A DNA stretch of 64,000 nt from an uncultured Chloroflexia bacterium (GTDB lineage: Bacteria > Chloroflexota > Anaerolineae > B4-G1 > SLSP01): positions 111,824 to 175,823 of the forward strand of contig CAVVUS010000037.1 in NCBI GenBank assembly GCA_963751345.1, written 5' to 3'. Below are positions 4,808 to 64,000 of this stretch, piece after piece. Within the stretch, counting starts at the first letter, position 1. Every line of letters begins with the position of its first letter. Position numbers and translations under genes: made by a program. A model generated the notes under the pieces. It was given only the letters and a program-made list of their open reading frames with translations. It ran no database searches and was not told where the DNA came from.

Positions 4808-5600
4808 ATGGCGGGAAAGGACAGGGCGGAGCACTTCGTATGGCCTCCGTATGTCGCCGAGTTCATCGGAACCGCGCTGCTGGTTCTCGTCGGCCTGTCA
4901 GTCGTGATCCTGAACTTCGGAAACGGCAGTCCGGTCGCCCGGCTGATCCCTAGTGCGGGGGCACGCCGGGCGATCACAGGCTTTCTCTTTGGCTCGACGG
5001 GCGGCCTCATCGCGATCTCGCCGATCGGCAAGGAGAGTGGTGCGCATATCAACCCGGTCGTCACACTCGCGTTCTGGCTGATGGGCAAGTTCCGGGGCCG
5101 GCACGCTGCCAGCTACGTCGTGGCGCAGTTGGCGGGTGGTATCGTAGGGGCACTTCCGCTGCTGGCCTGGGGAGCGATGGGGCGCAGTATCGAGTTTGGC
5201 GCGACGCTGCCGGGGCCGAGCGTGGGCCCCGGCATTGCGGTGCTTGGGGAGATCGCCACGACCCTGGCGTTGATCGTCGGGCTCTTTCTCTTTGTCCGAC
5301 ATCGCCGCCTCCGGGCTTTCACACCGGCGCTCTTCCCGTTTCTGTACGCCGCTATGGTCTTCCTGGAGGCGCCGCTTTCCGGGAACGAGCACCAATCCGG
5401 CGCGCAGCCTTGGCCCCGAAGTGGTATCGGGTGTGTGGCACGACTGGTGGATCTACTGGCTCGGCCCCCTGACCGGTATGCTGATCGGGGTCGCGCTCTT
5501 TCGATTCACCTGGTTGCGACGGGTCGAGATCGACGTGGTCAAGCTCTTCCATTTCGATTACGACCCACACCGCATATTCCGCCAGGATGGAGGGAACTGA
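4808..5600 (+). CDS. MIP/aquaporin family channel (frameshift near 5385)
   Basis: AEFIGTALL, SGAHINPVVT, GEIATT; SGTSTNPARSLGP continues in the frame of ORF 5292..5600. Confidence 0.88.
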
Positions 5601-5650
5601 CGCGCCCCACATAGCACTTACCTATTCGATGATGAGTGAGGAGACACAGG

Positions 5651-6467
5651 ATGGAAGGACTCAAGGACAAGAGAGTGTTGGTTACCGGAGCCACCTCGGG
5701 CATCGGGCAGGCGATTGCGGTTCGCTTTGCCGCCGAGGGCGCCCACGTGGGGATCAACTACTACTCGGACGAGGGATTAGTGGAGACGGACTACCGCGTG
5801 GAGGAGGCGGTTGAGGAGTGCCGCAAGCGCGTGGCCGAGATGGGCGTGGACTACGTCCTGGTGCAGGCCGATATCTCCAAGGAGGATGACGTGAAGCATC
5901 TGTTTGCAGAGGTCATCCGAGAACTCGGCGGCGTAGATATCCTCATCAACAACGCCGGGATACAGATCCCGGGGGATTCGGACAAGGTCGATCTGAGCGA
6001 CTTCGACCGGGTGGTCGGCGTCAACCTTAGAGGTGCGTACCTTTGCGCGCGCGAGGCGCTGCAGCACTTCCTGGCAGAGGACAAGCCGGGGATCATCATC
6101 AATGTCTCCAGCGTCCACCAGATCATCCCCAGGCCGCACTATATCAGTTACTCGATCAGCAAGGGCGGCATGCAAAACATGACGCGCACGCTGGCGCTGG
6201 AATATGCGGATCGCGGCATCCGGGTCAACGGGATCGGCCCGGGGGCCACCGCAACGCCCATTAACCGGGACTGGGTGAATGATCCCGAGAAACGGGCCGA
6301 GGTCGTGCAGCATATCCCTGTTGGGCGTGTGGGGACGCCTGAGGAGATGGCTGCCATCACGGCGTTCCTCGCGTCCGACGACGCGTCCTACATCACAGGG
6401 CAGACGCTCTTCGTCGACGGCGGGACTGACGTTATTTGCTGACTTCCGCACGCCGTGGTCAGGCTAA
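5651..6467 (+). CDS. gdh: Glucose 1-dehydrogenase-like SDR (frameshift near 6430)
   Basis: TGATSGIG, NNAG, SSVHQIIP, YSISK catalytic motif, ITGQTLFVDGG, then LTLFADFRTPWSG in a shifted frame. Confidence 0.85.
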
Positions 6468-6491: not shown

Positions 6492-8937
6492 ATGGGCACA
6501 GATGACAACTACGCGCCTGGTTGGCCGGGTATCGAGCCGCGCTGGACGTCCAGCGCGAAGAGCGGCGTCGGCACTTCGCTCAGTCTGGAGAGCCGGGTGT
6601 GGTTCACCACGAGTCACGGCATCCTGGATGAGATCTACTATCCTCGGGTGGACCAGGCCTGCACGCGAGATTTGGGCTTGATCGTGACTAACGGATCCGA
6701 TTTCTTCTCGGAGGAGAAACGGGATACCCGTCACGAAGTCTCGTACATTGCCCCGGGTTGCCCCGCCTATAAGCTCGTCAACACGTGCGAACAGGGGCGG
6801 TACGCCATCGAAAAAGAGATCCTGGCTGATCCAACTTACGATGTGGTCCTACAACGGATCAAGTTCACGCCGTTGAAGGGATCACAGGAAGACTACCACC
6901 TATACGTCCTGCTGGCCCCTCACCTTGGTAATCGAGGGGCAGGCAACACTGCGTGGCTCGGGGACTACAAAGGTGTGCCCATGCTGTTCGCCGAACGTGA
7001 CGGCAACGCCCTGGCCCTCGCGTGCTCTGCCCCGTGGGTCAAGCGATCGGCCGGTTTCGTCGGCACCTCAGATGGGTGGCAAGATCTGCATCGCCATAAG
7101 CAAGATGACGTGGACCTATGACAGGGCGGAGAACGGCAATGTCGCCCTGATCGGCGAGATCGATCTGCACGGGGCCGGGGATACGTTCATCCTAGCGCTG
7201 GGTTTTGGCCTCAATGACGCAGAAGCAGGCTATCGAGCCCTGGCCAGCCTGTACAAGGGCTTTGATTCGGCACGCGCGGCCTACATCGACGAGTGGCAGC
7301 AGTGGCAGCAGGGCCTGATGGACCTGGACAAGTCCGATGCAGGGAAGATGAGCCTCTATCGAGTCAGCACCGCAGTGATGCGCACCCACGGGGCAAAGCG
7401 TTTCCGCGGCGGACTGATGGCCAGCCTGTCCATCCCGTGGGGTTTTTCCAAGGGGGACGACGACCTGGGCGGCTATCATCTGGTGTGGCCGCGCGACCTG
7501 GTGGAGATCGGTGGGGGGCTGCTGGCTGCCGGCGCCCTCGACGAAGCCGGAAGCATCCTCGAGTATCTGCGGGTGACGCAGGAACTCGACGGGCACTGGC
7601 CGCAGAACATGTGGATTAACGGCACGCCATATTGGACCGGCGTGCAGATGGATGAGACGGCCTTCCCCATCCTGTTAGTGGACCAGGCCCGCCGTGAAAA
7701 GGCTCTCCATAGGGATCTGGACCACTACTGGCCGATGGTCCGCCGGGCTGCAGGCTATCTGGTCTGCAACGGTCCCGTCACCCAGCAAGACCGCTGGGAA
7801 GAGGACCCCGGCTACTCCCCCTTCACGCTGGCGGTTGAGATCGCCGCGCTATTGGCGGCCGCCGATTTGGCGGAGCTCCAAGGCGATGAGACAGCAGCAG
7901 CCTATCTGCGTGAGACGGCAGATAGCTGGAATGACAGTGTTGAGAAATGGACCTACGCCACGGGAACCGACCTGGCACAGGAGGCGGACGTGGAGGGATA
8001 TTACGTCCGAATCGCGCCGCCGGAGGAAGCAGCGGCAGGCTCACCTGCCGAAGGATTCGTGCCGATCAAGAACCGGCCGCCCGGCCAGAGCGCCGAGGCC
8101 GCTACCCAGATCGTCAGCCCCGATGCGCTGGCCCTGGTCCGATTCGGGCTGAGAGGTCCAGATACGGCCGAGATCGCCAACACCGTCAAGGTAATCGATC
8201 AATTACTTAAGGTGGAGACCCCGACAGGTCCGGCATGGCACCGCTACAACGATGATGGTTACGGCGAGCACGAGGATGGCGCGCCCTTTGACGGCACAGG
8301 GACAGGTCGCGCCTGGCCGCTGCTGACCGGTGAGCGGGCCCACTACGAACTGGCTGCCGGACGGAAGGATGAAGCCGAGCGCCTCCTGAATGTGTTGGCG
8401 TCGTTCGCAAGCAATGGTGGGATGCTGCCCGAACAGGTGTGGGACGCGCCCGACATTCCCGAGCGGGGTCTCTTCTTCGGGAGACCTTCCGGGTCGGCTA
8501 TGCCGCTGGCGTGGGCGCACGCCGAGTACGTCAAGCTCTGTCACTCACTCAAGGATGGCCAGGTCTTCGATATGCCGCCACAGACCGTCCAGCGCTACCA
8601 GATCGACGAGACGCACTCCCCGCGCTCAATCTGGCGCTTCAACAACAAGAGCCGCGTCATTACTGCAGGGCTGATGCTCCGAGTGGAGGTTCTGAGCCCC
8701 GCGGAGGTGCAGTGGAGCTCGGATGGCTGGAAAACGGTCCAGAAGGTCGCGACGCAGGATACCGGGCTGGGCATCTACTTCGCCGATCTGCCTGCGGACA
8801 AGCTAGCTGCCGGCGATACGATCGCCTTTCGCTTCCTATGGCATGACGAACAGAACGAGCAGAGCTCGACGTTCACCGTGCAGGTCGTGGACTCGACCAA
8901 GGGATCCGAATCCAAGTTGCTTGCTGCCGATCAGTAG
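6492..8937 (+). CDS. Glucoamylase/glucodextranase, GH15 (frameshift near 7100)
   Basis: APGWPGIEPRW...K.GVGT, ASLSIPWG, YHLVWPRDL, QDRWEE, RYNDDGYGE, GRAWPLLTGER, LPEQVW, SAMPLAWAHAEY. Confidence 0.92.
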
Positions 8938-46447: not shown

Positions 46448-47925
<1,478 letters not shown>

Positions 47926-51740: not shown

Positions 51741-51810
51741 ACGTTGGACGCTGAAACGTTGAGACGTTGGATCCGGAGCGATACTCGCGGCAACCCGTTG
51801 GTACGTTAGG
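51740..51810. repeat. ACGTT-core ~8-mer array between lysX and lysK
   Basis: AACGTTGG ACGCTGAA ACGTTGAG ACGTTGG ... ACGTTAG. Confidence 0.6.
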
Positions 51811-51832: not shown

Positions 51833-52910
<1,078 letters not shown>

Positions 52911-52919
<9 letters not shown>

Positions 52920-52960
52920 ACGTTCCCGGCATGTGAACGTGTCAAACGTTCAGAACGTCA
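52911..52960. repeat. ACGTT-core array at the lysK 3' end
   Basis: AACGTTTG AACGTTCC ... AACGTGTC AAACGTTC AGAACGTC. Confidence 0.6.
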
Positions 52961-54450: not shown

Positions 54451-57298
54451 ATGCAAGCAGACCCGTCAGCCGTGCTCGATTCTGTCCGAGACCTTCTGCG
54501 CTGGGGCTCGATCCTGCTCGGCGCGCTCGGCTTACTGATCGCCTTGTGGGTCCTCGTGCGAGTGGCTGACGCGGCGCTGGTGGCGCGAGGTCGAAGGGCT
54601 CGACGCTGAGCTTCGCGACACGACCGCCCACCTCGACGCAGACCTGGCCCGCCTCGAGGCCGAGGCCGCCCTCTTCCCCCGCGACATCTCCGCCCCGTAC
54701 GCGACGGCCGCGGGACAGCTCTACGAGAAGCTGGATCGGGCAAAGACGATCGTGGGCAACCTTGCGAAGGTGTTGCGGCCAACCTTCGCAAGGTTGCCGC
54801 AGAACCTTCGCAAGGTTCACCCACCAACGCCTGGCACCGTCTCCGCTTCCTCCTCGTCCGCGAGCCCAACGCCGCGCGCCAACGACGATCCCAGCTCCGC
54901 GCAGCACTGGTCCAGGCAAAGGCGCTCCGAGGCGAACTCGACGCGGCCGACGCGCTGCTCAAGGAGCTACGCGAGAAGCCTCTCGCGACAGCCAGGAAAG
55001 CTCGCGAGCTAGGGTCAACGCTTGAGACGGCGCTCGGGCTGGTTGCTGCCCTGCAGACGGGCGGCGTTCGCGGCGAGCGCCTGGACGACGTCCTCGTCAC
55101 GCTGCAGAGCTGGAAGGCGCAACTCGCGTCGCTGCCGGCCTACCTGTTCACCGGTAAGGAAAGCCAGGTCGCGCGGCTGGCACAGCCGGCATCGAGTCGT
55201 GATGGCGTGGCGGACGCTCTCCGAGCTCGAACCTGCGGCCCGCGAGCGCATGGCCGACCTGACGCGCTGGCAGAGCGCCCTGTCAAGCGTCCCGGCCGAA
55301 CTGGAGCAGATGGACCAGACCGTGGCATCGGCCACGACGTGTCTGGAGCAAACCCATCCCTCGATCGACACCAATGCCCTCAGCGAAGCCTGGGCGGTCA
55401 CGTCGGACCGGGCCCGCGAGCTTGACGCCTGCTATGAGGCCCCCACCCTTGACGATCTCGATGGGCTGGACCGGCTGGGCGCCGTGACGCAGGAAGCCAA
55501 CCACCTGGTCGCACAGCTCGCCTCGTTGGAGGCGCTGCGCGGATCGCTGGAGGAAAAGTTCGCCCAGGGCAGGGACCGCCTCGACGAGTTGGAGCGCCAG
55601 CTCCGGCAGCTCGCGGATGCCGGTCGCTATCCCCTGGACCGCGTCCCCTTCCAGGGAGAGCTCGACCGGATCCGGCGGCAGCTCACGGCCCTTGGGTGGC
55701 ACGTCGCCCTCTGCTCGCCGAGGCAACGCCCGCACCGCGCACGACCGCCCAATTGGAGTCGGCCCTGGCCTCCGCCCAGGTCATCGACCAGCAACTGCGC
55801 GCGCTCACGACGCGTCTGGCCGAGGCCCGCGAGGACCGGCGGCGCCTGGTCGAGCTTCTCGACGCCGAAACGCGACCCGGCGCTGCAGCCCAGGTCGACT
55901 GGCTGGTGTGGGCGCACGATCTGCACGCCCGTACACGCGGCTTCGACGAAGCCAACTGGACCTCAGGGCCGCGCGCCAGCACCGACGAGGACCTGCGCGT
56001 GCCGCAGATCCTGGCCGATGCGGAGGCCCTGAACCACCGGCGGGGACTCTGGATCCCCGAGCACAAGGAGGATCTCCTGGAGCCCAGCACGCTGGCCCGC
56101 CGCGTGCGCGAGGTCCAGGCCATCTTGACCGACACCGAGGCCTTCCAGAACCGCCTCGACAGGATCACGCGCCTGCTGCAGCGGCTACAGCAGACCGAGG
56201 AGCGGGTGAAGGCGGACCTGGAGACCGCCTACGGCGCCCTGGATCGCCTGGAGATCGTCGCAGCCGGGATCCTGCCCGCGGCGCTCTCGGAGGAGGACAA
56301 CCACTGGTCCGAGATCCGGGCGTACCTGAGCCAGGGATACGACCTCGATGCTGCGCTCGATGCTCCCGCGGAGGGAACCGTGTGGGAGAAGGCCGTGGCG
56401 GTGGCCGATTGGATCGCGGCGTGCTTGGCGACCCTCAGTGACTGGCACCGGGTGCTGCAGCGAGAGCTCGATGCAACCCGGACATCGCTCACGCGGGATC
56501 TTGGGGAGGTGAGCGAGGTCGCACCTTTTGATGATGAGCCCGCCGTCGTCGAGGGCCGGAGGGTCGTGGAGCTCGCGGCGTCCCCCTCGCGCAGCAAGGC
56601 CACGCCGGACGCGGCGGGCCTCACGGCGCTCAGCACCGAGGTCGCGGACCGGCTGCGCGCGCTCGCCCAGATCGACAAAGCCGTGGCGGATCTGACGTCG
56701 TCGGTGCTCACGCCGCTTGCCGAGCCCGTGGCCCACTGGCACGCGGCCCAGCAGGAGGCCGAGGCCGCCTACCGCCAACTCCAGCGGCTGGAACTCCAAT
56801 CGGCGCGGCAGTGGCCGCCGGTGAGCTGCGACACGGCGTCGGTCAAGGCACAGCTCGACCGGGCCGCGGAAGCGCAGGTCACGCTCGCCGAGAAGGGCAG
56901 CACCATCAAACAGGTCCTGAGCGAGATCCGGGACCTCACCGAGCGCTATCGTCGCGCCACAGCCCTCGTCGAGACGAACACCCAGGCCTACACCTCGCTG
57001 CGACCGGAGCTCGACGCGATGCTGGAGCAATCTGGAGACGTGGTGTAACGCCCTGGAGAGCTACCGGCAGCGCCACGAGGACGATCCCGCCGTCGTCGCC
57101 GCCATCCGGGCCCGGCTGGACGAGATCGAGAACGCCTCAACCCAACTGCAGACCGACTGGGACAAGGCTGCGGGCCTCGTCCCCGGAGACGAAGCCCGCA
57201 AAGCCCTTGACACCCTCTGGCGCCGTGCCCACCGCGACGTCCCCGTCGGCGCCGGCATCAACGTCATCCCCACCGGATGGGTGGAGGGTGGGCGTTAG
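54451..57298 (+). CDS. Large N-terminally membrane-anchored coiled-coil protein (many frameshifts)
   Basis: SD AAGGAG, TM helix WGSILLGALGLLIALWVLV, then L/A/E/R-rich helical ORF segments in successive frames. Confidence 0.6.
54757..54818. repeat. Three AACCTT(GCG/CGC)AAGGT palindromes within coding sequence
   Basis: GCAACCTTGCGAAGGT, CAACCTTCGCAAGGTTG, GAACCTTCGCAAGGTTC. Confidence 0.75.
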
Positions 57299-57333: not shown

Positions 57334-57985
57334 CTATCGCCTCCTTCGGACGAGACCGAACAGGGCCACAGTGCTAGCCAATCAGCAGTAGTGAAGGCAA
57401 TATACGAGCTGGACCAGCAGAGAACGCGGTGACAAGCACGCCGGTCGCTGGGACTTCCTCGACGAAGATGTTGTCGAACCAAGCTGTGTCAAATGGCGCC
57501 GTCTGGCCCTGCGTCTGAAGCGTGATTCTGAGCGATGCGTAGTCTGTGCCACTCAGACGAAAAATCCGCCGACATGTCCTACCCACTCCCCTTCTCCCTT
57601 ATCCTCTGTGAGCGTGACGGAATCATAGGGAGTTCCCTGGCAGCCAGCGGCTGGATACCACTGGATAGTAATGGCACCAAGGCCCGTCGACAGAGTGCAC
57701 ACCGCCCCCCACACGAGCTGTGGGCCCAGGCTGGAGATGTCAGACACGCACTGCGTCAAGCTGATCGCATTGGCGCCTGCATTTGCGACCGAGGGTTCAG
57801 GGTGACCCACCTCCTGATCCCGAGCGAACTGACCGGCCGTCGAAGACCAGCCTGGAATGCTGACAGCGTCTCCATCACCGAAATCGCCGTTGATGACAAG
57901 ATTGTCGGCTGAGGAAATCGGCGGTGCAGCGGCGACAATGAGGACCAAACATGAGAGCGAGGATCGACCAACGCAAGGGCTTCAT
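57334..57985 (-). CDS. Secreted protein with C-terminal TM and basic tail (frameshifts)
   Basis: SD GGAGGT, signal peptide, NLVINGDF motif, C-terminal VPATG, hydrophobic stretch, VRRRR-stop. Confidence 0.6.
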
Positions 57986-58197
57986 CGCACAGACCTCCAC
58001 CTGACTAAGAGAGGGAAGCACTGTGCATCATTATAAACGTGATTCTGTCGGAAATCAAGGCGCAAAATGTGTCAATGGGTTCCCTTTCAGATCATCCACG
58101 GTATCTCCCTCGCGTGATCCCCATACCAGGGGGTGTCCGGGACGATCACTCACACGGCCTAACCACTGCTCGGCTGCGCCTACGATGGACCTCGCCA

Positions 58198-58226
58198 TTG
58201 ACCACCGGATCAAATCCAGATACCAT
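58198..58226 (+). promoter_or_regulatory. Sigma70-type promoter upstream of MNT gene and polysaccharide locus
   Basis: TTGACC-17 nt-TACCAT. Confidence 0.5.
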
Positions 58227-58282
58227 GTCTGCGTGGCGTTGAGCATCGCAGTGTCTCCTTCAGAAATAGAGGCCGGATTCGT

Positions 58283-58636
58283 ATGTCCCATCGCGAGGAG
58301 CTCCAGCAGCAACGAACGGCGCATGCGGCCGCCCTATGGGCGGAAGGCGCACGGCTCGCCACAGCCGCCGCAGCTCTCGGCGCCGAACGCGTGATCCTCT
58401 TCGGCTCGCTCGCCCGCGACGAGCCGGACCTGACCAGCGATCTGGATCTGCTCATCGTCTGGGATACCCCACTTGACTACCTATCCCGAATCGTGGAACT
58501 CTACAGACGCCTCGATCCTCACGGCCCGATCGACCTGCTCGTCTATACACCCGCCGAGATGTTGACGATGCGTGATCGTCCGTTCATCCGCCGGATCCTG
58601 ACAGAAGGCAAGGTGCTCTATGAAGTAGAGCGTTAG
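58283..58636 (+). CDS. Minimal nucleotidyltransferase (MNT), no adjacent HEPN gene
   Basis: VILFGSLAR....SDLDLLIV, IDLLVYTP.E, EGKVLYE. Confidence 0.9.
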   Translation: MSHREELQQQRTAHAAALWAEGARLATAAAALGAERVILFGSLARDEPDLTSDLDLLIVWDTPLDYLSRIVELYRRLDPHGPIDLLVYTPAEMLTMRDRPFIRRILTEGKVLYEVER

Positions 58637-58664
58637 CACGTTCCAACGTTTCCACGTTCAAACG
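58630..58664. repeat. ACGTT-core 8-mer tandem array
   Basis: GCGTTAGC ACGTTCCA ACGTTTCC ACGTTCAA ACG, directly before SD GGAGGTG. Confidence 0.8.
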
Positions 58665-58674
58665 GAGGTGTCTG

Positions 58675-59099
58675 ATGCCCCCCATCCAACGCTTCGAGGA
58701 CATCCAAACCTGGCAGACAGCGCGCGAACTGACCCGGCGGGTCTACACACTGTCAAACCAAGACCGTTTCTCGCGCGACCGCGGCCTGAGCGACCAGATC
58801 CGCCGCGCCGCCGTCTCCATCATGTCCAACATCGCGGAGGGCTTCGAGAGCGAGGGCCAAGCCCTATTCATCAGATACCTGGGCTACGCCAAAGCCTCCG
58901 CCGGCGAAGTCCGCGCCCAACTCTACGTCGCCCAAGACGTCGGCTACCTGACACAGCCGCAATTCACCGAACTCTACGACCTGGCCGACAAATGCAGCCG
59001 CCAACTCAGCCGCTTCATCGCGTACCTGCGAAGCCGTCCAACGAGCGCTGCCCGTTCGAACCCGGTATCGAATACGACACAGACGTTGGAACGTTTTAA
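58675..59099 (+). CDS. Four-helix-bundle protein (23S rRNA IVP / bAvd-like family); C-terminal frameshift
   Basis: RFEDIQTWQTAREL, DQIRRAAVSIMSNIAEGF, FIRYLGYAKASAGEVRAQLYVA.DVGYL. Confidence 0.93.
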
Positions 59100-59158
59100 C
59101 GTTAGCACGTTCCGACGTTCTCAACGTTCCAACGTTCACACGTTCACACGTTCCAACG
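59083..59158. repeat. ACGTT-core 8-mer tandem array (about 9 units), self-complementary
   Basis: ACGTTGGA ACGTTTTA ACGTTAGC ACGTTCCG ACGTTCTCA ACGTTCCA ACGTTCAC ACGTTCAC ACGTTCCA ACG, then GAGGTG SD. Confidence 0.88.
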
Positions 59159-59168
59159 GAGGTGTATC

Positions 59169-60311
59169 TTGTCCCAAACCGTCTTCATCAGCGGCATCTT
59201 CGACCTGCTCCACAGCGGCCACATCGCCTTCTTCCGCCAGGCCGCGGCCTACGGCGACCTCGTCGTCGCCATCGGCTCCGACCAGACCGTCTACGAGCTC
59301 AAGGGCCACCCGCCCATCAACGACGAGGACGAGCGGCTCTTCATGGTCAAGGCCGTCTCCTACGTCAAGGACGCCTTCATCTCCCGCGGCTCGGGCATCC
59401 TCGACTTCGAGCAGGAGCTCCGCGCCCTTAAGCCCGACCTCTTCATCGTCACCGAGGACGCCAACATCCCCGCCAAGCGCTGGCTCTGCGACGAGCTGGG
59501 CATCGCCTACCAGGTCGTCAAACGCGAGCCCTACGCCGGCCTCCCGCCGCGCTCCTCCACCGCCATGCGCGAGCTCGACCGCATCCCCTACCGCATCGAC
59601 CTCTGCGGCGGCTGGCTCGACCAACCCTACGTCTCCAAACACCACCCCGGCGCCGTGATCACGCTCTCGATCGAGCCCACCGTCGCCTTCAACGAGCGCA
59701 GCGGCATGGCCACCAGCACCCGCAACAAAGCCGTCGACCTCTGGGGCAGCCGCCTGCCCGCGGGCGACCCCGAGAAGTGGGCCAGGGTCCTCTTCTGCTA
59801 CGACAACCCCCCCGGCACGCAGACCATCTCCGGATCGCAGGACGCCATCGGCCTCGTCGTCCCCGGCCTCAACTACGCCACCTACGACGGCGCCTACTGG
59901 CCCACGCGCATCGAGCCCTGCCTCGACGAGCTGACCCTGCAGTTCACCGAGCGCGCCCTCACCCTCATCCCGCTCGGCCCCCGCGGCCCCGAGTACGACG
60001 TCCTCGCCGGCACGCACATCGACCGCGACGGCGCCAAGGCGCTCGCCGACGCCACCGACGCCTGCTGGGACGCCCTCCTCTCGCGCAACCTCCCCGCCTT
60101 CGGCCGCGCCATGCGCGCCGGCTTCGAGGCCCAGATCGCCATGTTCCCCCACATGATGAACGCCATGCTCGCCGGCATGATCGACACCTACCGCGACCGC
60201 GCGCTCGGCTGGAAAGTCTCCGGCGCCGGCGGCGGCGGCTACCTCATCCTCGTCGCCGACGGCCCCGTCAACGGCGGCTTCCAAATCGTCGCCCGCCGCG
60301 AGCGGTGTTGA
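59169..60311 (+). CDS. Cytidylyl/adenylyltransferase fused to GHMP-family sugar kinase
   Basis: GIFDLLHSGH (HxGH), PYRIDLCGGWLD, SGMATS, GSQD, GWKVSGAGGGGY. Confidence 0.9.
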   Translation: MSQTVFISGIFDLLHSGHIAFFRQAAAYGDLVVAIGSDQTVYELKGHPPINDEDERLFMVKAVSYVKDAFISRGSGILDFEQELRALKPDLFIVTEDANIPAKRWLCDELGIAYQVVKREPYAGLPPRSSTAMRELDRIPYRIDLCGGWLDQPYVSKHHPGAVITLSIEPTVAFNERSGMATSTRNKAVDLWGSRLPAGDPEKWARVLFCYDNPPGTQTISGSQDAIGLVVPGLNYATYDGAYWPTRIEPCLDELTLQFTERALTLIPLGPRGPEYDVLAGTHIDRDGAKALADATDACWDALLSRNLPAFGRAMRAGFEAQIAMFPHMMNAMLAGMIDTYRDRALGWKVSGAGGGGYLILVADGPVNGGFQIVARRERC

Positions 60312-60362
60312 GGGGCGACGCGACGCAAGGGAGCGGATGGGCAGAGGCGAGGAGGAGATAAG

Positions 60363-60760
60363 GTGATACGGAGCCATGAGGAGCTGGAGGTATATCGGGC
60401 AAGCGTTCGAAGCTGCGATGCGGGTCTTCGACGTGATCAAAGACCTTTCCACGCGAGTGAAACCTATTCGCTGACCGACCAAATCCGTCGATCCTCGCTG
60501 CTCTGTCTGCGGCAACTTGGCCGATGCCTGGCGCCGTCGTCGCTACGTAGCCGCTATTCGTCACCGGCTTAAGCACTGTGAGTCGTACGCTCGCCCTAGG
60601 CGCTGAGGCTGCCGAGACGCAGACGTGGTTGGCTTATCGCGGTCGAGTGCGGCTACCTCGCACCCGAGACCGCCAGATGACCTCCATACCAGCTACGACA
60701 ACATCATCGGAAACTCGTCCGTATGTATCACCAACCCCACGCCGTGGGTCTTAGCCGGCA
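60363..60760 (+). CDS. Second four-helix-bundle protein (multiple frameshifts; possibly degraded; end approximate)
   Basis: SHEELEVY, ETYSLTDQIRRSS, AWRRRRY, EAAETQTW, ECGYL, YDNIIG, NPTPW across frames. Confidence 0.8.
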
Positions 60761-60775
60761 GGATGCTAGGCGCCG

Positions 60776-60858
60776 AGATGCAGGAGATGCAGAGGCAAGC
60801 CCTCTATCCTCGTGCACCTCTGCTGCCTCTGCGCAGCTGCTCCTACGCTCCCCCGCAC
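60776..60858. repeat. GCAGAGG/CCTCTGC-type inverted arrays
   Basis: AGATGCAGGAGATGCAGAGGCA ... CACCTCTGCTGCCTCTGCGC; related purine-rich tract at 60312-60358. Confidence 0.6.
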
Positions 60859-60891
60859 ACAATCTTGCACCCCACTGGGCTGCACGCACCC

Positions 60892-60920
60892 TTGACACCC
60901 CCTCTTACCGGTGTTAAGAT
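60892..60920 (+). promoter_or_regulatory. Sigma70 promoter internal to polysaccharide locus
   Basis: TTGACA-17 nt-TAAGAT with TGn extension. Confidence 0.7.
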
Positions 60921-61097
60921 GGTGCACATTGGATGGACAAAGACTCGAGTCGCAACTGTGGCAATGCCCGGGGGCGCACCCTGAACCGGGCGAGCGCCCG
61001 CAGCACCACGCCGTCGTCCCCTGCTCATCGGCTCCTCGCTCTACCAGGAAGCCCTTTCCCTGGCCGCCCGAGATCGACGACACGTCCGGCAATCTCG

Positions 61098-61160
61098 TTA
61101 TTCTCTATTCTCACATTCTCAATTCTCTGATTCTTTCATTCTTGATTCTCTGATTCTGTC
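61098..61160. repeat. ATTCT-core 7/8-mer tandem array
   Basis: ATTCTCT ATTCTCAC ATTCTCA ATTCTCTG ATTCTTTC ATTCTTG ATTCTCTG ATTCTGT, ending a few nt before ATG 61164. Confidence 0.88.
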
Positions 61161-61163
61161 CCA

Positions 61164-62204
<1,041 letters not shown>

Positions 62205-62231
<27 letters not shown>

Positions 62232-62334
62232 AGAATCAAAAGAATGGGCGTGCAGTTCGCTGATTCTCCCATTCTGCATTCTCCGATTCTCCATTCTCTG
62301 ATTCTGTATTCTTTCATTCTGCATTCCGGATTCA
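62205..62334. repeat. AGAAT then ATTCT inverted arrays
   Basis: AGAATCAG..AGAATGA AGAATCAAA AGAATGG, then about 9 ATTCT units. Confidence 0.85.
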
Positions 62335-62356
62335 AGAGGCGTCCAGAGGTGAACCT

Positions 62357-62656
62357 ATGAGCGTACCGGACAAGCTTGAGCTGCTCAAAGAGAGCTATGC
62401 CGATGAGGAGGAGTTGAACCGCGTCCTGGAAAGGCTCTTAGACGTGGTCCTGAACCAGCATCGACTGCGTCTGGCGCGCTACGAGCGGGAGCTGCACGAC
62501 TTTGAGGAGAGGTTCGGGATGGACTCCGCGACGTTCGCGGCCCGTTTCGAAGCCGGCGAGTTGGGCGACCGCACCGACTATTTCGAATGGGCCGGTCTCT
62601 ACGCGCTGAAGCAGGACCTGATTGACAAGATTCACCGTCTGGAAGCTGCTGCATAG
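62357..62656 (+). CDS. Putative antitoxin (TumA-like)
   Basis: L..FEERFGMDSATF..RFEAGELGD..DYFEW; 2 nt upstream of a DUF6516-like gene. Confidence 0.7.
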   Translation: MSVPDKLELLKESYADEEELNRVLERLLDVVLNQHRLRLARYERELHDFEERFGMDSATFAARFEAGELGDRTDYFEWAGLYALKQDLIDKIHRLEAAA

Positions 62657-62658
62657 GC

Positions 62659-63066
62659 ATGATCTCAGCCCACGCTTACTTGGCAGGCGTCAAGGCGACC
62701 ATCGCACTCTGCCCTAACATCACACAGTGGGTGGTCCTGCGCGAGGAAGCCCAGGGCGACGTGGGAATGCTGCGTTATCGACTGACGTTCGACAGCAGCG
62801 ACCTCCTTGAGGTCTTCGAGTACTTCCGAATCGTAGGCGACCAGGTCGTGCGTCCGAAATATAGCTACCATTGGCAGGACAGTGCCGGTGCTCTCAAGAT
62901 GCGCTGGGACAACGCCGCGCATCATCCTGAAGTGGCGACGTACCCACACCACTTGCACCAGTCCTCGGAGGCTCACGTCTTGCCGCACGGCGAGGTGACC
63001 CTGGAAGAGGTGCTCGAAGTCGTGACGCGGCAAGAGGAACAAGCGGAAAAGCGAGAAGGCGAATGA
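62659..63066 (+). CDS. DUF6516 / TumE-like putative toxin
   Basis: KYSYHWQ, RWDNAAHH, TYPHHLH. Confidence 0.82.
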   Translation: MISAHAYLAGVKATIALCPNITQWVVLREEAQGDVGMLRYRLTFDSSDLLEVFEYFRIVGDQVVRPKYSYHWQDSAGALKMRWDNAAHHPEVATYPHHLHQSSEAHVLPHGEVTLEEVLEVVTRQEEQAEKREGE

Positions 63067-63163
63067 GCAAGCGCCTTCTCGCCTTCTCGCCTTTTCGCTC
63101 ATTCTCATTCTTGCATTCTGCATTCTTCATTCTCTGATCCTGTAAATCCTGTGAATCCTGTCC
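63041..63163. repeat. Stacked arrays: GCGAGAAG/CTTCTCGC hairpin, ATTCT array, ATCCTGT 9-mer array
   Basis: GCGAGAAGGCG / CGCCTTCTCGC; ATTCTC ATTCTTGC ATTCTGC ATTCTTC ATTCTCTG; ATCCTGTAA ATCCTGTGA ATCCTGTC. Confidence 0.85.
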
Positions 63164-63186
63164 AATCATCCGATCTCGGAGACCCA

Positions 63187-64000
63187 ATGTCACTTCTTGA
63201 AAAGTTCTCCAACCGCACCGCCACCGTCGGCATCGTCGGCCTGGGCTACGTCGGCCTGCCGCTGGCCGTCGTCTTCGCCAAGGCCGGCTTCCGGGTCCGC
63301 GGCATCGACCTCAACCAGGCGCGCGTCGACGGCGTCAATAGCTGTACGTCGTACATTGAAGACGTGTCGGACGAGACGTTGGCGCTCGCTCTGCGACCGC
63401 CTCTCGGCCGGGACCGACTTCTCCGTCCTGTCCGAGTGCGACGCGGTCTCCATCTGCGTCCCCACCCCGCTGAGCAAGACCGGCGACCCCGACGTCTCCT
63501 ACATCATCGCCGCCGCCGACCAGATCGCCCACTACCTCCACCCGGGGATGGTCGTGGTGCTGGAGTCGACCACCTACCCCGGCACGACCACCGAGATCGT
63601 GCTCCCGCGGCTCACGGGCAACGGGGCGCATCTGACGGTAGGCGAGGACTTCTTCCTCTGCTTCTCCCCCGAGCGCGTCGACCCGGGCCGCGAGGACTGG
63701 ACCACCCAGAACACGCCCAAGATCATCGGCGGGGTCACGCCCGCGCTGCCTGGAGATGGGCCGCGCCTTCTACGGCGCCGCGCTGGAGACCCTGGTCCCG
63801 GTCTCCTCCACCTCGGCCGCCGAGATGGTCAAGCTGCTGGAGAACACGTTCCGCGCCGTCAACATCGGCCTGGCCAACGAGGTGCTCCTGATGTGCGAGA
63901 CGCTGGGCCTCGACGTCTGGGAGGTCATCGACGCCGCGGCGACCAAGCCCTTCGGCTTCATGAAGTTCACGCCCGGCCCCGGCATCGGCGGCCACTGGTG
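63187..64000 (+). CDS. Nucleotide-sugar dehydrogenase (UDP-HexNAc 6-dehydrogenase, WecC/WbpA-like); frameshifts, 3'-truncated
   Basis: GLGYVGLPLA, ICVPTP, ESTTYPGTT, FSPERVDPG, AEMVKLLENTFRAVNI, TKPFGF, PGPGIGGH. Confidence 0.93.

Follow-up and report, generated by a model that had tools for sequence, protein, structure and literature searches.

Why should short-period repeat arrays be present at every gene junction of one bacterial locus, and why should each four-helix-bundle gene in it be bracketed by a repeat family of its own? The locus, at positions 58283–63187, lies in a stretch of 64,000 nucleotides (nt) from an uncultured Chloroflexia bacterium; this whole stretch, hereafter the window, is part of a 5.40-Mb, 49-contig assembly (the source genome, G000). 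The four-helix genes belong to PF05635/TIGR02436, a widespread family with solved structures for which we know of no function outside diversity-generating retroelements (DGRs). An excess of heptamer repeats between bacterial genes has been on record for decades and, to our knowledge, has been given neither an origin nor a role. Here we show that the bracketing is genuine and extends well beyond the window, and that protein clades match repeat families, non-syntenic contexts included. This clade-specific pairing merges an orphan protein family and intergenic short tandem repeats into one testable hypothesis. A cassette composed of a PF05635 gene and its two arrays is well supported by the comparative evidence, and recognition of the arrays by the protein, together with mobility of the unit, is its most likely meaning.

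The two bracketed loci of the window consist of the following parts.

58638..58664, + strand: cassette 1 upstream arm, 3.4 ACGTTCCA units, period 8 (Tandem Repeats Finder, direct reading)
58675..59055, + strand: four-helix-bundle gene 1, PF05635/TIGR02436 (Pfam 5.3e-33; TIGR02436 3.7e-32; PDB 2GSC 7.5e-11)
59083..59158, + strand: cassette 1 downstream arm, about 9 ACGTT units (ACGTTCCA, period 8; Tandem Repeats Finder)
60312..60362, + strand: cassette 2 upstream arm, purine-rich, weak and irregular GGAGCGGA / GCAGAGG units (sequence reading)
60363..60760, + strand: four-helix-bundle pseudogene 2, frameshifted (tblastn with family members, frames 1 and 2)
60775..60833, + strand: cassette 2 downstream arm, two copies of GAGATGCAG followed by CCTCTGC units (Tandem Repeats Finder, two copies at 60775-60792)

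In cassette 1, the TAG stop codon of the upstream nucleotidyltransferase gene abuts the first ACGTT unit, and the upstream arm terminates at the ribosome-binding site (RBS) GGAGG, ahead of the ATG at 58675; the downstream arm ends at the RBS of the next gene. The upstream arm is unstructured when folded alone (58630-58674, z −0.5), and the downstream arm forms a hairpin (59078-59165, −34.8 kcal/mol, z −5.6). Gene 1 scores above the curated cut-offs (PF05635, 113.9 bits against 33.8; TIGR02436, 110.8 against 24), and the second intact family gene of the genome, on contig C20, scores 97.8. The family motif GxxRxxxSxxxNxxE, as given in the available part of PMC3936711, is recognizable by eye in the gene 1 translation as RxxxSxxxNxxE (RAAVSIMSNIAE), the leading G not being present. 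The first stop codon in the reading frame comes only at 59658, which leaves the 3′ end uncertain (stop loss or assembly indel). Both intact genes of the source genome (58675-59658; C20, L082 1997-2626) lack a stop codon at the position where their orthologues end, and their frames run through the downstream array, yielding 327 and 209 residues.

The sequence-only reading had also placed a second four-helix gene between arms of its own; the bracketing stands, and the gene proves to be a frameshifted PF05635 pseudogene with irregular arms. The pseudogene has no Pfam match, its best tblastn hit (E 9e-18) is to L109, and it is the third and last family locus of the source genome. GCAGAGG is the weakest of these array families: Tandem Repeats Finder reports no row at 60312, its sole row for this family is the two-copy one at 60775-60792, and the downstream hairpin is weaker than that of cassette 1 (60770-60840, −30.6 kcal/mol, z −1.9). 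The ACGTT, ATTCT, GCGGAA-type and ATCCTGTAA arrays of that reading were borne out, and the GCAGAGG arrays more weakly. Clade-mates of the pseudogene (L003/L135, L140) carry regular arrays of the GCAGAGG family, and it is closest to a clade with regular GGAGCAGAGG/GGAGCGGA-type arms, the same family that surrounds it in irregular form.

Besides this pseudogene, the source genome contains two intact PF05635 genes, the second of which (C20) is bracketed by a different family, TGGATG-type upstream and CATCC-type downstream; all three loci carry the arm family of their own clade. PF05635 genes were gathered from 40 relatives within the same order by means of our own profile, and around each gene a flank of 220 nt on the upstream side and 320 nt on the downstream side was scanned. 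Adequate flanks were available for 58 of the 65 full-length genes, after removal of two doubly fetched loci. Arrays were present upstream of 49/58, downstream of 49/58 and on both sides of 45/58. The same windows around all 4272 genes of the source genome contained arrays upstream in 103, downstream in 127 and on both sides in 7 cases, and both-sided arrays flanked 0/1112 genes of at most 180 residues. The arms of 39 of the 45 bracketed genes are inverted relative to each other. The best period is 7 in 35–37 genes and 8 in 11–14, and the arms have a median length of about 6.3–6.7 units (range 2.5–27). The upstream arm is purine-rich in 40/53 genes and pyrimidine-rich in 4; its end lies beside the RBS, at a median distance of 28 nt from the domain start. 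Neighbouring genes are co-oriented with the cassette in nearly all determinable cases (upstream 52/53, downstream 45/46).

A maximum-likelihood tree of the 65 proteins resolves well-supported clades with one arm family each, which bears out the prediction that protein clade would foretell the flanking repeat across genomes. TGGATGC/CATCCAG arms accompany nine rows of the tree (support 100/99) and GCAGGTC/CCTGCGA arms the three rows of the sister clade (100/100). Further clades carry GGGAGTA/CCCTACT (five rows), ACGTT (three rows, window gene 1 and two relatives), GCGATAA (five), GACGAYA (three), AACCTGA (four), AGTGGTY (two), ACGCAAT (three) and GCAAGTRGG (two). Because kin share loci by descent, we compared the genomic contexts of same-family pairs: among the 56 pairs whose two flanks could both be compared, 32 have no neighbour in common, 11 have one and 13 have both, with 16 more pairs lacking data. 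In the syntenic relative L004, the nucleotidyltransferase gene has the gene 1 orthologue (73% identity) on its opposite side, again flanked by ACGTT. A ~75-nt element, in which AACGTT units flank a GCCCTGAGC...GTAGGG hairpin, occurs twice in L004 (5014-5090, 7141-7215), one copy following the four-helix gene and the other the host gene.

Gene and arms are also present and absent together. We compared the junction that precedes orthologues of the gene next downstream of the C20 cassette. There, the intergenic gap in G000 (567 nt) and G001 (590 nt) consists of array, gene and array, and the insertion begins at the upstream stop codon. In G019 and G021, the same two host genes are separated by 41 and 132 nt, respectively, with no array. 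G006, G016 (with a gene fragment) and G020 carry the gene with arrays at this junction, and seven further genomes, in which a different gene lies upstream, have neither gene nor array. The suggestion that the arrays mark the insertion of small gene cassettes is thus supported for four-helix genes, for which filled and clean empty sites exist, and not for small genes generally.

Across genomes, the co-occurrence of family and arrays shows a positive trend that is not clean, among sampled genomes that are related. In a core-agnostic scan of DNA sampled from ten genomes, the six without a PF05635 match yielded 0/187, 0/188, 0/200, 0/200, 1/65 and 3/184 loci per kb sampled, and the four with matches yielded 4/177, 3/185, 13/200 (genome with 13 matches) and 13/61 (genome with 6 matches); the source genome has 111 array loci in 5405 kb. 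G030 (L234-L243) bears an extreme load, with 13 period-7/8 loci of many families in 61 kb and six four-helix matches. Within the genus, the ACGTT period-8 pattern is patchy, with 100 matches in G000, 91 in G002 and none in 13/21 congeners. When the core is reversed as a control (TTGCA), two other genomes of the order give 383 and 177 matches, and one of these two has a family gene with ACTTGCAC arms.

The bracketed layout recurs in Bacteroidota, Verrucomicrobiota and Myxococcota and on cyanobacterial plasmids. In one genome from each of these three phyla, arrays were flagged on both sides of 5/16 family loci and on at least one side of 12/16, and further array pairs below the threshold are visible by eye. 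Six family loci were read on plasmids of cultured strains, and 4/6 have arrays of complementary units on at least one side (Nostoc ATCC 53789, N. punctiforme, Trichormus variabilis and Riemerella). Nostoc PCC 7120 pCC7120alpha has an array downstream only, and the Calothrix plasmid locus has one only further upstream. These other-phylum and plasmid figures stand without a genome baseline.

Beyond the four-helix loci, the arrays are a feature of the whole source genome. Pentamer cores recurring at least three times at 7–9-nt spacing form 470 runs at 337 loci, against 152 and 136 in a third-order Markov resample; ACGTT accounts for 67 runs (1 in the resample), ATTCT for 41 (0) and TCAGC for 18 (1). 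Core-agnostic self-matching gave 62 and 68 segments at lags 7 and 8, against 1 and 2 in the control. Coding lags 6, 9 and 12 apart, the excess is confined to these two lags, with none at 4, 5, 10, 11 or 13, and about 92% of the segments are intergenic (57/62 at lag 7, 62/68 at lag 8). The mismatches gather in 2–3 phases of the unit (at lag 8, the variance statistic is 4.83, and none of 500 permutations exceeds 2.35); the fixed core with a variable spacer, read from the letters, is therefore real. The proposed switch from a purine-rich form to a pyrimidine-rich form held as well: in the ATTCT family, 14/14 arrays lying within 30 nt after a stop codon have the purine form, and 5/5 lying within 30 nt before a start codon have the pyrimidine form. 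Arrays adjoin stop codons and RBSs across the genome, and their copy number differs between orthologous sites.

An association confined to four-helix genes did not survive the genome-wide scan, in which 111 merged core-agnostic array loci face 3 four-helix loci and most (>100) are distant from every four-helix gene. The loci cluster, 27% having a neighbour within 3 kb (mean 13% and maximum 23% in 200 random placements), and the region described here ties as the densest cluster, with five junction loci in 4.5 kb. By intergenic type, arrays occupy 68/1917 tandem, 11/378 convergent and 10/378 divergent regions. About 38% of the loci fold with z below −3, compared with 12% of 100 control regions, and 32% have z above 0. 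A reading of the arrays as terminators only was rejected, given their presence in divergent regions (10/378) and the 32% of loci with positive fold z. Intergenic and baseline counts rely on our own rough gene caller (77–80% coding), which left out the two intact four-helix genes, since the frames of both continue into the next gene; its list of six genes flanked on both sides was consequently not used for the four-helix family.

On balance, we regard as probable a single-gene cassette with arms that are the cis sites of its own protein, the arrays without an open reading frame (ORF) being derivatives of such cassettes. The PF05635 gene is the sole gene of a ~0.5-kb cassette, laid out as a purine-rich array (7–8-nt units, a median of 6), then the RBS, then an ORF of ~125 residues and a reverse-complement array. 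The cassette sits in sense between co-directional host genes, usually starting from the upstream stop codon, and is gained and lost as a unit; a promoterless, sense-oriented and intervening-sequence-like element is the best reading of this anatomy. We infer that the arrays are read by the oligomeric protein of the cassette, with about one unit per subunit, and that each protein lineage is thereby specific for its arm sequence, in the manner of transposon subterminal repeats. Both kinds of ORF-less array, the hairpin and the single arm, would represent non-autonomous copies or relics, and the cassette would be mobile.

Several observations weigh against this model. The detector found no array on either side of 5/58 PF05635 genes, 6/45 cassettes have direct arms, and 13/56 same-family pairs are plain syntenic orthologues in related genomes that are not independent. 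One genome and a rough gene caller underlie the baseline rate. The filled junction, a single site compared with empty sites, shows no evident target-site duplication, and the four-helix protein has no recognizable catalytic domain, PF05635 being its sole Pfam match. G015 and G034, in which no PF05635 gene was detected, nevertheless carry a few arrays. The source genome has three family loci, yet holds 44 ATTCT, 18 TCAGC and 11 TACTCC loci with no cognate gene; genes with matching arms are found elsewhere in the order (L147 for CATTCTGT, L084 and L121 for GCTGA, L092-L118 for TACTCC). The read-through frames of the intact genes, like the other frameshifted genes of the window, may be assembly indels, and we count them against the simple story.

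Could the four-helix oligomer instead be a host regulator that wraps periodic RNA arrays to control translation, processing or termination, as the sequence-only reading proposed, its own arrays serving autoregulation and the others forming a regulon, with no mobility involved? TRAP- and HutP-type rings use a short fixed core with short variable spacers, repeated about as many times as the oligomer has subunits, and the fixed core, variable spacer and 7–8-nt period of the arrays resemble this arrangement. The same idea would account for the end of the purine arm beside the RBS, 28 nt (median) from the domain start, for arrays adjoining stop codons and RBSs throughout the genome, for the sense orientation of the cassettes and, through specific recognition, for the match between clade and repeat. 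The four-helix fold is, however, unrelated to TRAP and not homologous to it. Moreover, a host regulator fits poorly with gene and arms that are gained and lost jointly, leaving clean empty sites, and with the same clade and family appearing in unrelated contexts. Nor does it sit well with large array families that persist in the source genome without a cognate gene, with ACGTT arrays missing from 13/21 congeners, or with arrays in divergent (10/378) and convergent (11/378) regions, and we consider it unlikely. Still less probable, in our estimate, is that the arrays are ordinary simple-sequence repeats (SSRs) made by slippage, into which four-helix genes insert or among which they survive. An excess of heptamer and octamer SSRs to which no function is assigned has been reported from several phyla in the available parts of PMC4679880, PMC4692102 and PMC6749651, most arrays of the source genome are distant from four-helix genes, and copy number varies at orthologous sites, all as slippage would have it. 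Against this, empty orthologous sites have no arrays, the arm family tracks the protein clade even in non-syntenic contexts, 39/45 arm pairs are inverted, and the core positions are conserved while the spacers vary, whereas a slipped repeat would decay uniformly.

It could also be the RNA that matters, the arms pairing into a long stem from which RNase III excises the ORF loop out of the operon transcript, as in 23S rRNA, with the protein as dispensable cargo. The flanks of PF05635 genes do pair, upstream with downstream, above shuffled controls (median z −2.8; 28/57 below −3), the cassettes lie in sense, and in Coxiella RNase III cuts the stem of the element, whose ORF is seemingly not expressed, according to the available part of PMC4990558. 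The arm alignments are, however, only ~79% identical (median 35 of 44.5 positions), and an RNA-stem compensation test was negative: mismatches show no sense-strand G-U bias (58 vs 82), and transversions (199) make up most of them. Selection, then, is not maintaining a conserved RNA stem. A search of sequencing runs with 57900-63400 of the window listed no RNA run, and only DNA contigs of small share. The direct arms of 6/45 pairs, the intact ORFs and the conservation of clades across families of the order speak against it too, and we judge it a remote prospect. The cassette model, in which the protein reads its own arms, accommodates the joint gain and loss, the inverted arms and the clade-repeat match.

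The closest known architecture is that of the 23S rRNA intervening sequences of Coxiella and Leptospira. In Coxiella, a 428-nt element carries a homologous ORF in its loop above a 28-bp terminal stem cut by RNase III, and the ORF is preceded, within the terminal inverted repeat, by two to three tandem GACAGAT heptamers, variable in number between strains (PMC4990558, available part). Intervening sequences share with the cassettes a PF05635 ORF in a ~0.4–0.75-kb element with complementary termini, upstream tandem heptamers of variable number (PMC4990558, same part) and co-transcription in sense with the host operon. Unlike them, the cassettes lie between protein-coding genes and not within rRNA helices, their arms are long periodic arrays (median 6, up to 27 units) and not a near-perfect 28-bp stem, and the arm sequence tracks the protein clade. 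An ORF-bearing intervening-sequence architecture is thus met here at operon junctions, where the arrays are mistakable for terminators, CRISPR-like repeats or assembly artefacts.

The arrays also correspond to long SSRs and short tandemly repeated repetitive sequences (STRRs), in that those of the window and of the source genome are tandem 5–11-nt units, over-represented and mainly intergenic. Excess heptamer repeats without known function are described, in the available parts of the respective papers, from Beggiatoaceae, cyanobacteria and Bacteroidetes (PMC4679880), Xanthomonas and Nostoc (PMC4692102) and Chloroflexus (PMC6749651). Like the present arrays, repeats such as TAACTGA (Beggiatoaceae), GGGAATC (Xanthomonas) and GATAGRA (Chloroflexus) are tandem 7–8-nt units, over-represented and mostly intergenic, beside stop or start codons and in species-specific families; those parts do not tie them to a protein-coding cassette, in contrast to the inverted arms around a specific gene family seen here, and PMC4679880 contains no term for the PF05635 family. 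A literature search that covered few subscription journals, without supplements, found no paper stating a family-wide, clade-specific bracketing of PF05635 genes by repeats. It is conceivable, if doubtful, that PF05635 cassettes constitute a new class of mobile element with an Avd-like pentamer as sole protein and one 7–8-nt unit per subunit, and that its arms and relics make up these unexplained repeat families jointly: the cyanobacterial STRRs, GGGAATC of Xanthomonas, TAACTGA of Beggiatoaceae, GATAGRA of Chloroflexus and the heptamers of rRNA intervening sequences.

The four-helix bundle is homologous to DGR Avd, and the Xanthomonas homologue reportedly forms a pentamer. The relation to Avd proposed by the sequence-only reading, a resemblance also stated in the available part of PMC10053308, extends to homology only: a search for the reverse transcriptase domain RVT_1 gave 0 candidates in G000 (matches in 10/41 relatives), and template and variable repeats are not present. 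A DGR link was accordingly rejected, the neighbours of gene 1 being a nucleotidyltransferase and a sugar-nucleotide enzyme. PADLOC returned no match for the four-helix proteins, and Y1_Tnp gave three weak matches in G000. REP/REPIN-RAYT systems (repetitive extragenic palindromes and their associated transposases) and MITEs (miniature inverted-repeat transposable elements) are short dispersed intergenic inverted repeats in many copies, the cognate gene itself being repeat-flanked. They resemble the cassettes in having families specific to the flanked cognate gene and patchy among relatives; in contrast to RAYT, the four-helix protein is not a Y1 transposase, and its arms are periodic arrays of variable copy number and not fixed palindromes. 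As regards a DNA transposon or MITE with subterminal repeats, the cassettes have inverted arms, the one filled site compared with empty sites shows no obvious target duplication, and a search for Pfam domains revealed no catalytic one. PF05635-family genes have been noted inside cas loci (PMC3936711, available part), where they may be such cassettes, and in rRNA insertions of bacteria of the candidate phyla radiation (bioRxiv 10.1101/2024.02.27.582315, available part).

Across 58283-63187, the gene order is MNT nucleotidyltransferase, PF05635 gene, cytidylyltransferase/GHMP-kinase-like gene, frameshifted four-helix gene, NAD-dependent epimerase, TumA/TumE and the start of a UDP-glucose-dehydrogenase-like gene. 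The remaining annotated features are listed below.

58283..58636, + strand: MNT-type nucleotidyltransferase gene, upstream neighbour of cassette 1 (Pfam Polbeta, NTP_transf_2; weak NCBIfam MntA match)
59169..60311, + strand: cytidylyltransferase-like / GHMP-kinase-C fusion, host gene between both cassettes (Pfam, NCBIfam)
61100..61157, + strand: ORF-less single-arm ATTCT array, about 7.6 units, period 7–8 (Tandem Repeats Finder)
62205..62326, + strand: ORF-less hairpin-type array, AGAAT arm followed by ATTCT arm, period 7–8 (Tandem Repeats Finder, 62262-62326)
62357-62656 and 62659-63066, + strand: TumA-like antitoxin and TumE toxin, with arrays on either side (Pfam TumE 2.2e-21)
63031..63161, + strand: composite ORF-less arrays, GCGAGAAG/CTTCTCGC hairpin, CATTCT array and 2.8 copies of ATCCTGTAA (Tandem Repeats Finder)
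63031-63053 and 63072-63098, + strand: GCGGAA/CGCCTTCT arrays within the composite (Tandem Repeats Finder)
63099-63134, + strand: CATTCT array (Tandem Repeats Finder)
63137-63161, + strand: ATCCTGTAA array, period 9 (Tandem Repeats Finder)

The arrays of this locus are of two structural types, hairpin-type and unstructured single arm. The single ATTCT arm at 61100-61157 stops 6 nt before the epimerase start and is unstructured (61095-61163, −1.4 kcal/mol, z +1.0). The hairpin-type array begins with its AGAAT arm, at 62205, within the 3′ end of the epimerase gene and finishes with its ATTCT arm ahead of the TumA-like gene (62200-62335, −41.6 kcal/mol, z −2.9). The composite array ends ahead of the UDP-glucose-dehydrogenase-like gene (63028-63165, −47.9 kcal/mol, z −4.2). 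Three further array sites lie at ~47780-47925, 51741-51769 and 52918-52960. The NCBIfam TumA and TumE matches of the pair at 62357..63066 are below cut-off.

The UDP-glucose-dehydrogenase-like gene (63188-64000) is broken up among three or more frames (ORFs 63151-, 63197-, 63756-), and the gene after 51835 (51835-52920) also looks broken; these are either pseudogenes or assembly indel errors. In L004, an ORF that by eye looks HEPN-like follows the nucleotidyltransferase gene (5507-5900); in the window, four-helix gene 1 occupies that position and no HEPN partner is seen. Between the same two host genes, another relative, L002 (1341-2620), has a different small-gene insert framed by CAGTTGT-type and GATTTGC-type arrays. 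Orthologues of the cytidylyltransferase/GHMP fusion gene were found in 80 loci. Directly after one of them, in an Anaerolineales relative (L018 1268-1510), lie ~240 nt of heptamers, GGGAATT/GAAATTA units and then TCTCCAA, with no four-helix gene there by profile search. After another (L003 ~7440-7900), the spacer holds two tandem ~230-nt GC-rich copies framed by TCAGC triplets. Upstream of the locus, 55000-57000 is 70% G+C and contains a 450-residue ORF (55696-57048) that is conserved beside the locus in L003 and L004.

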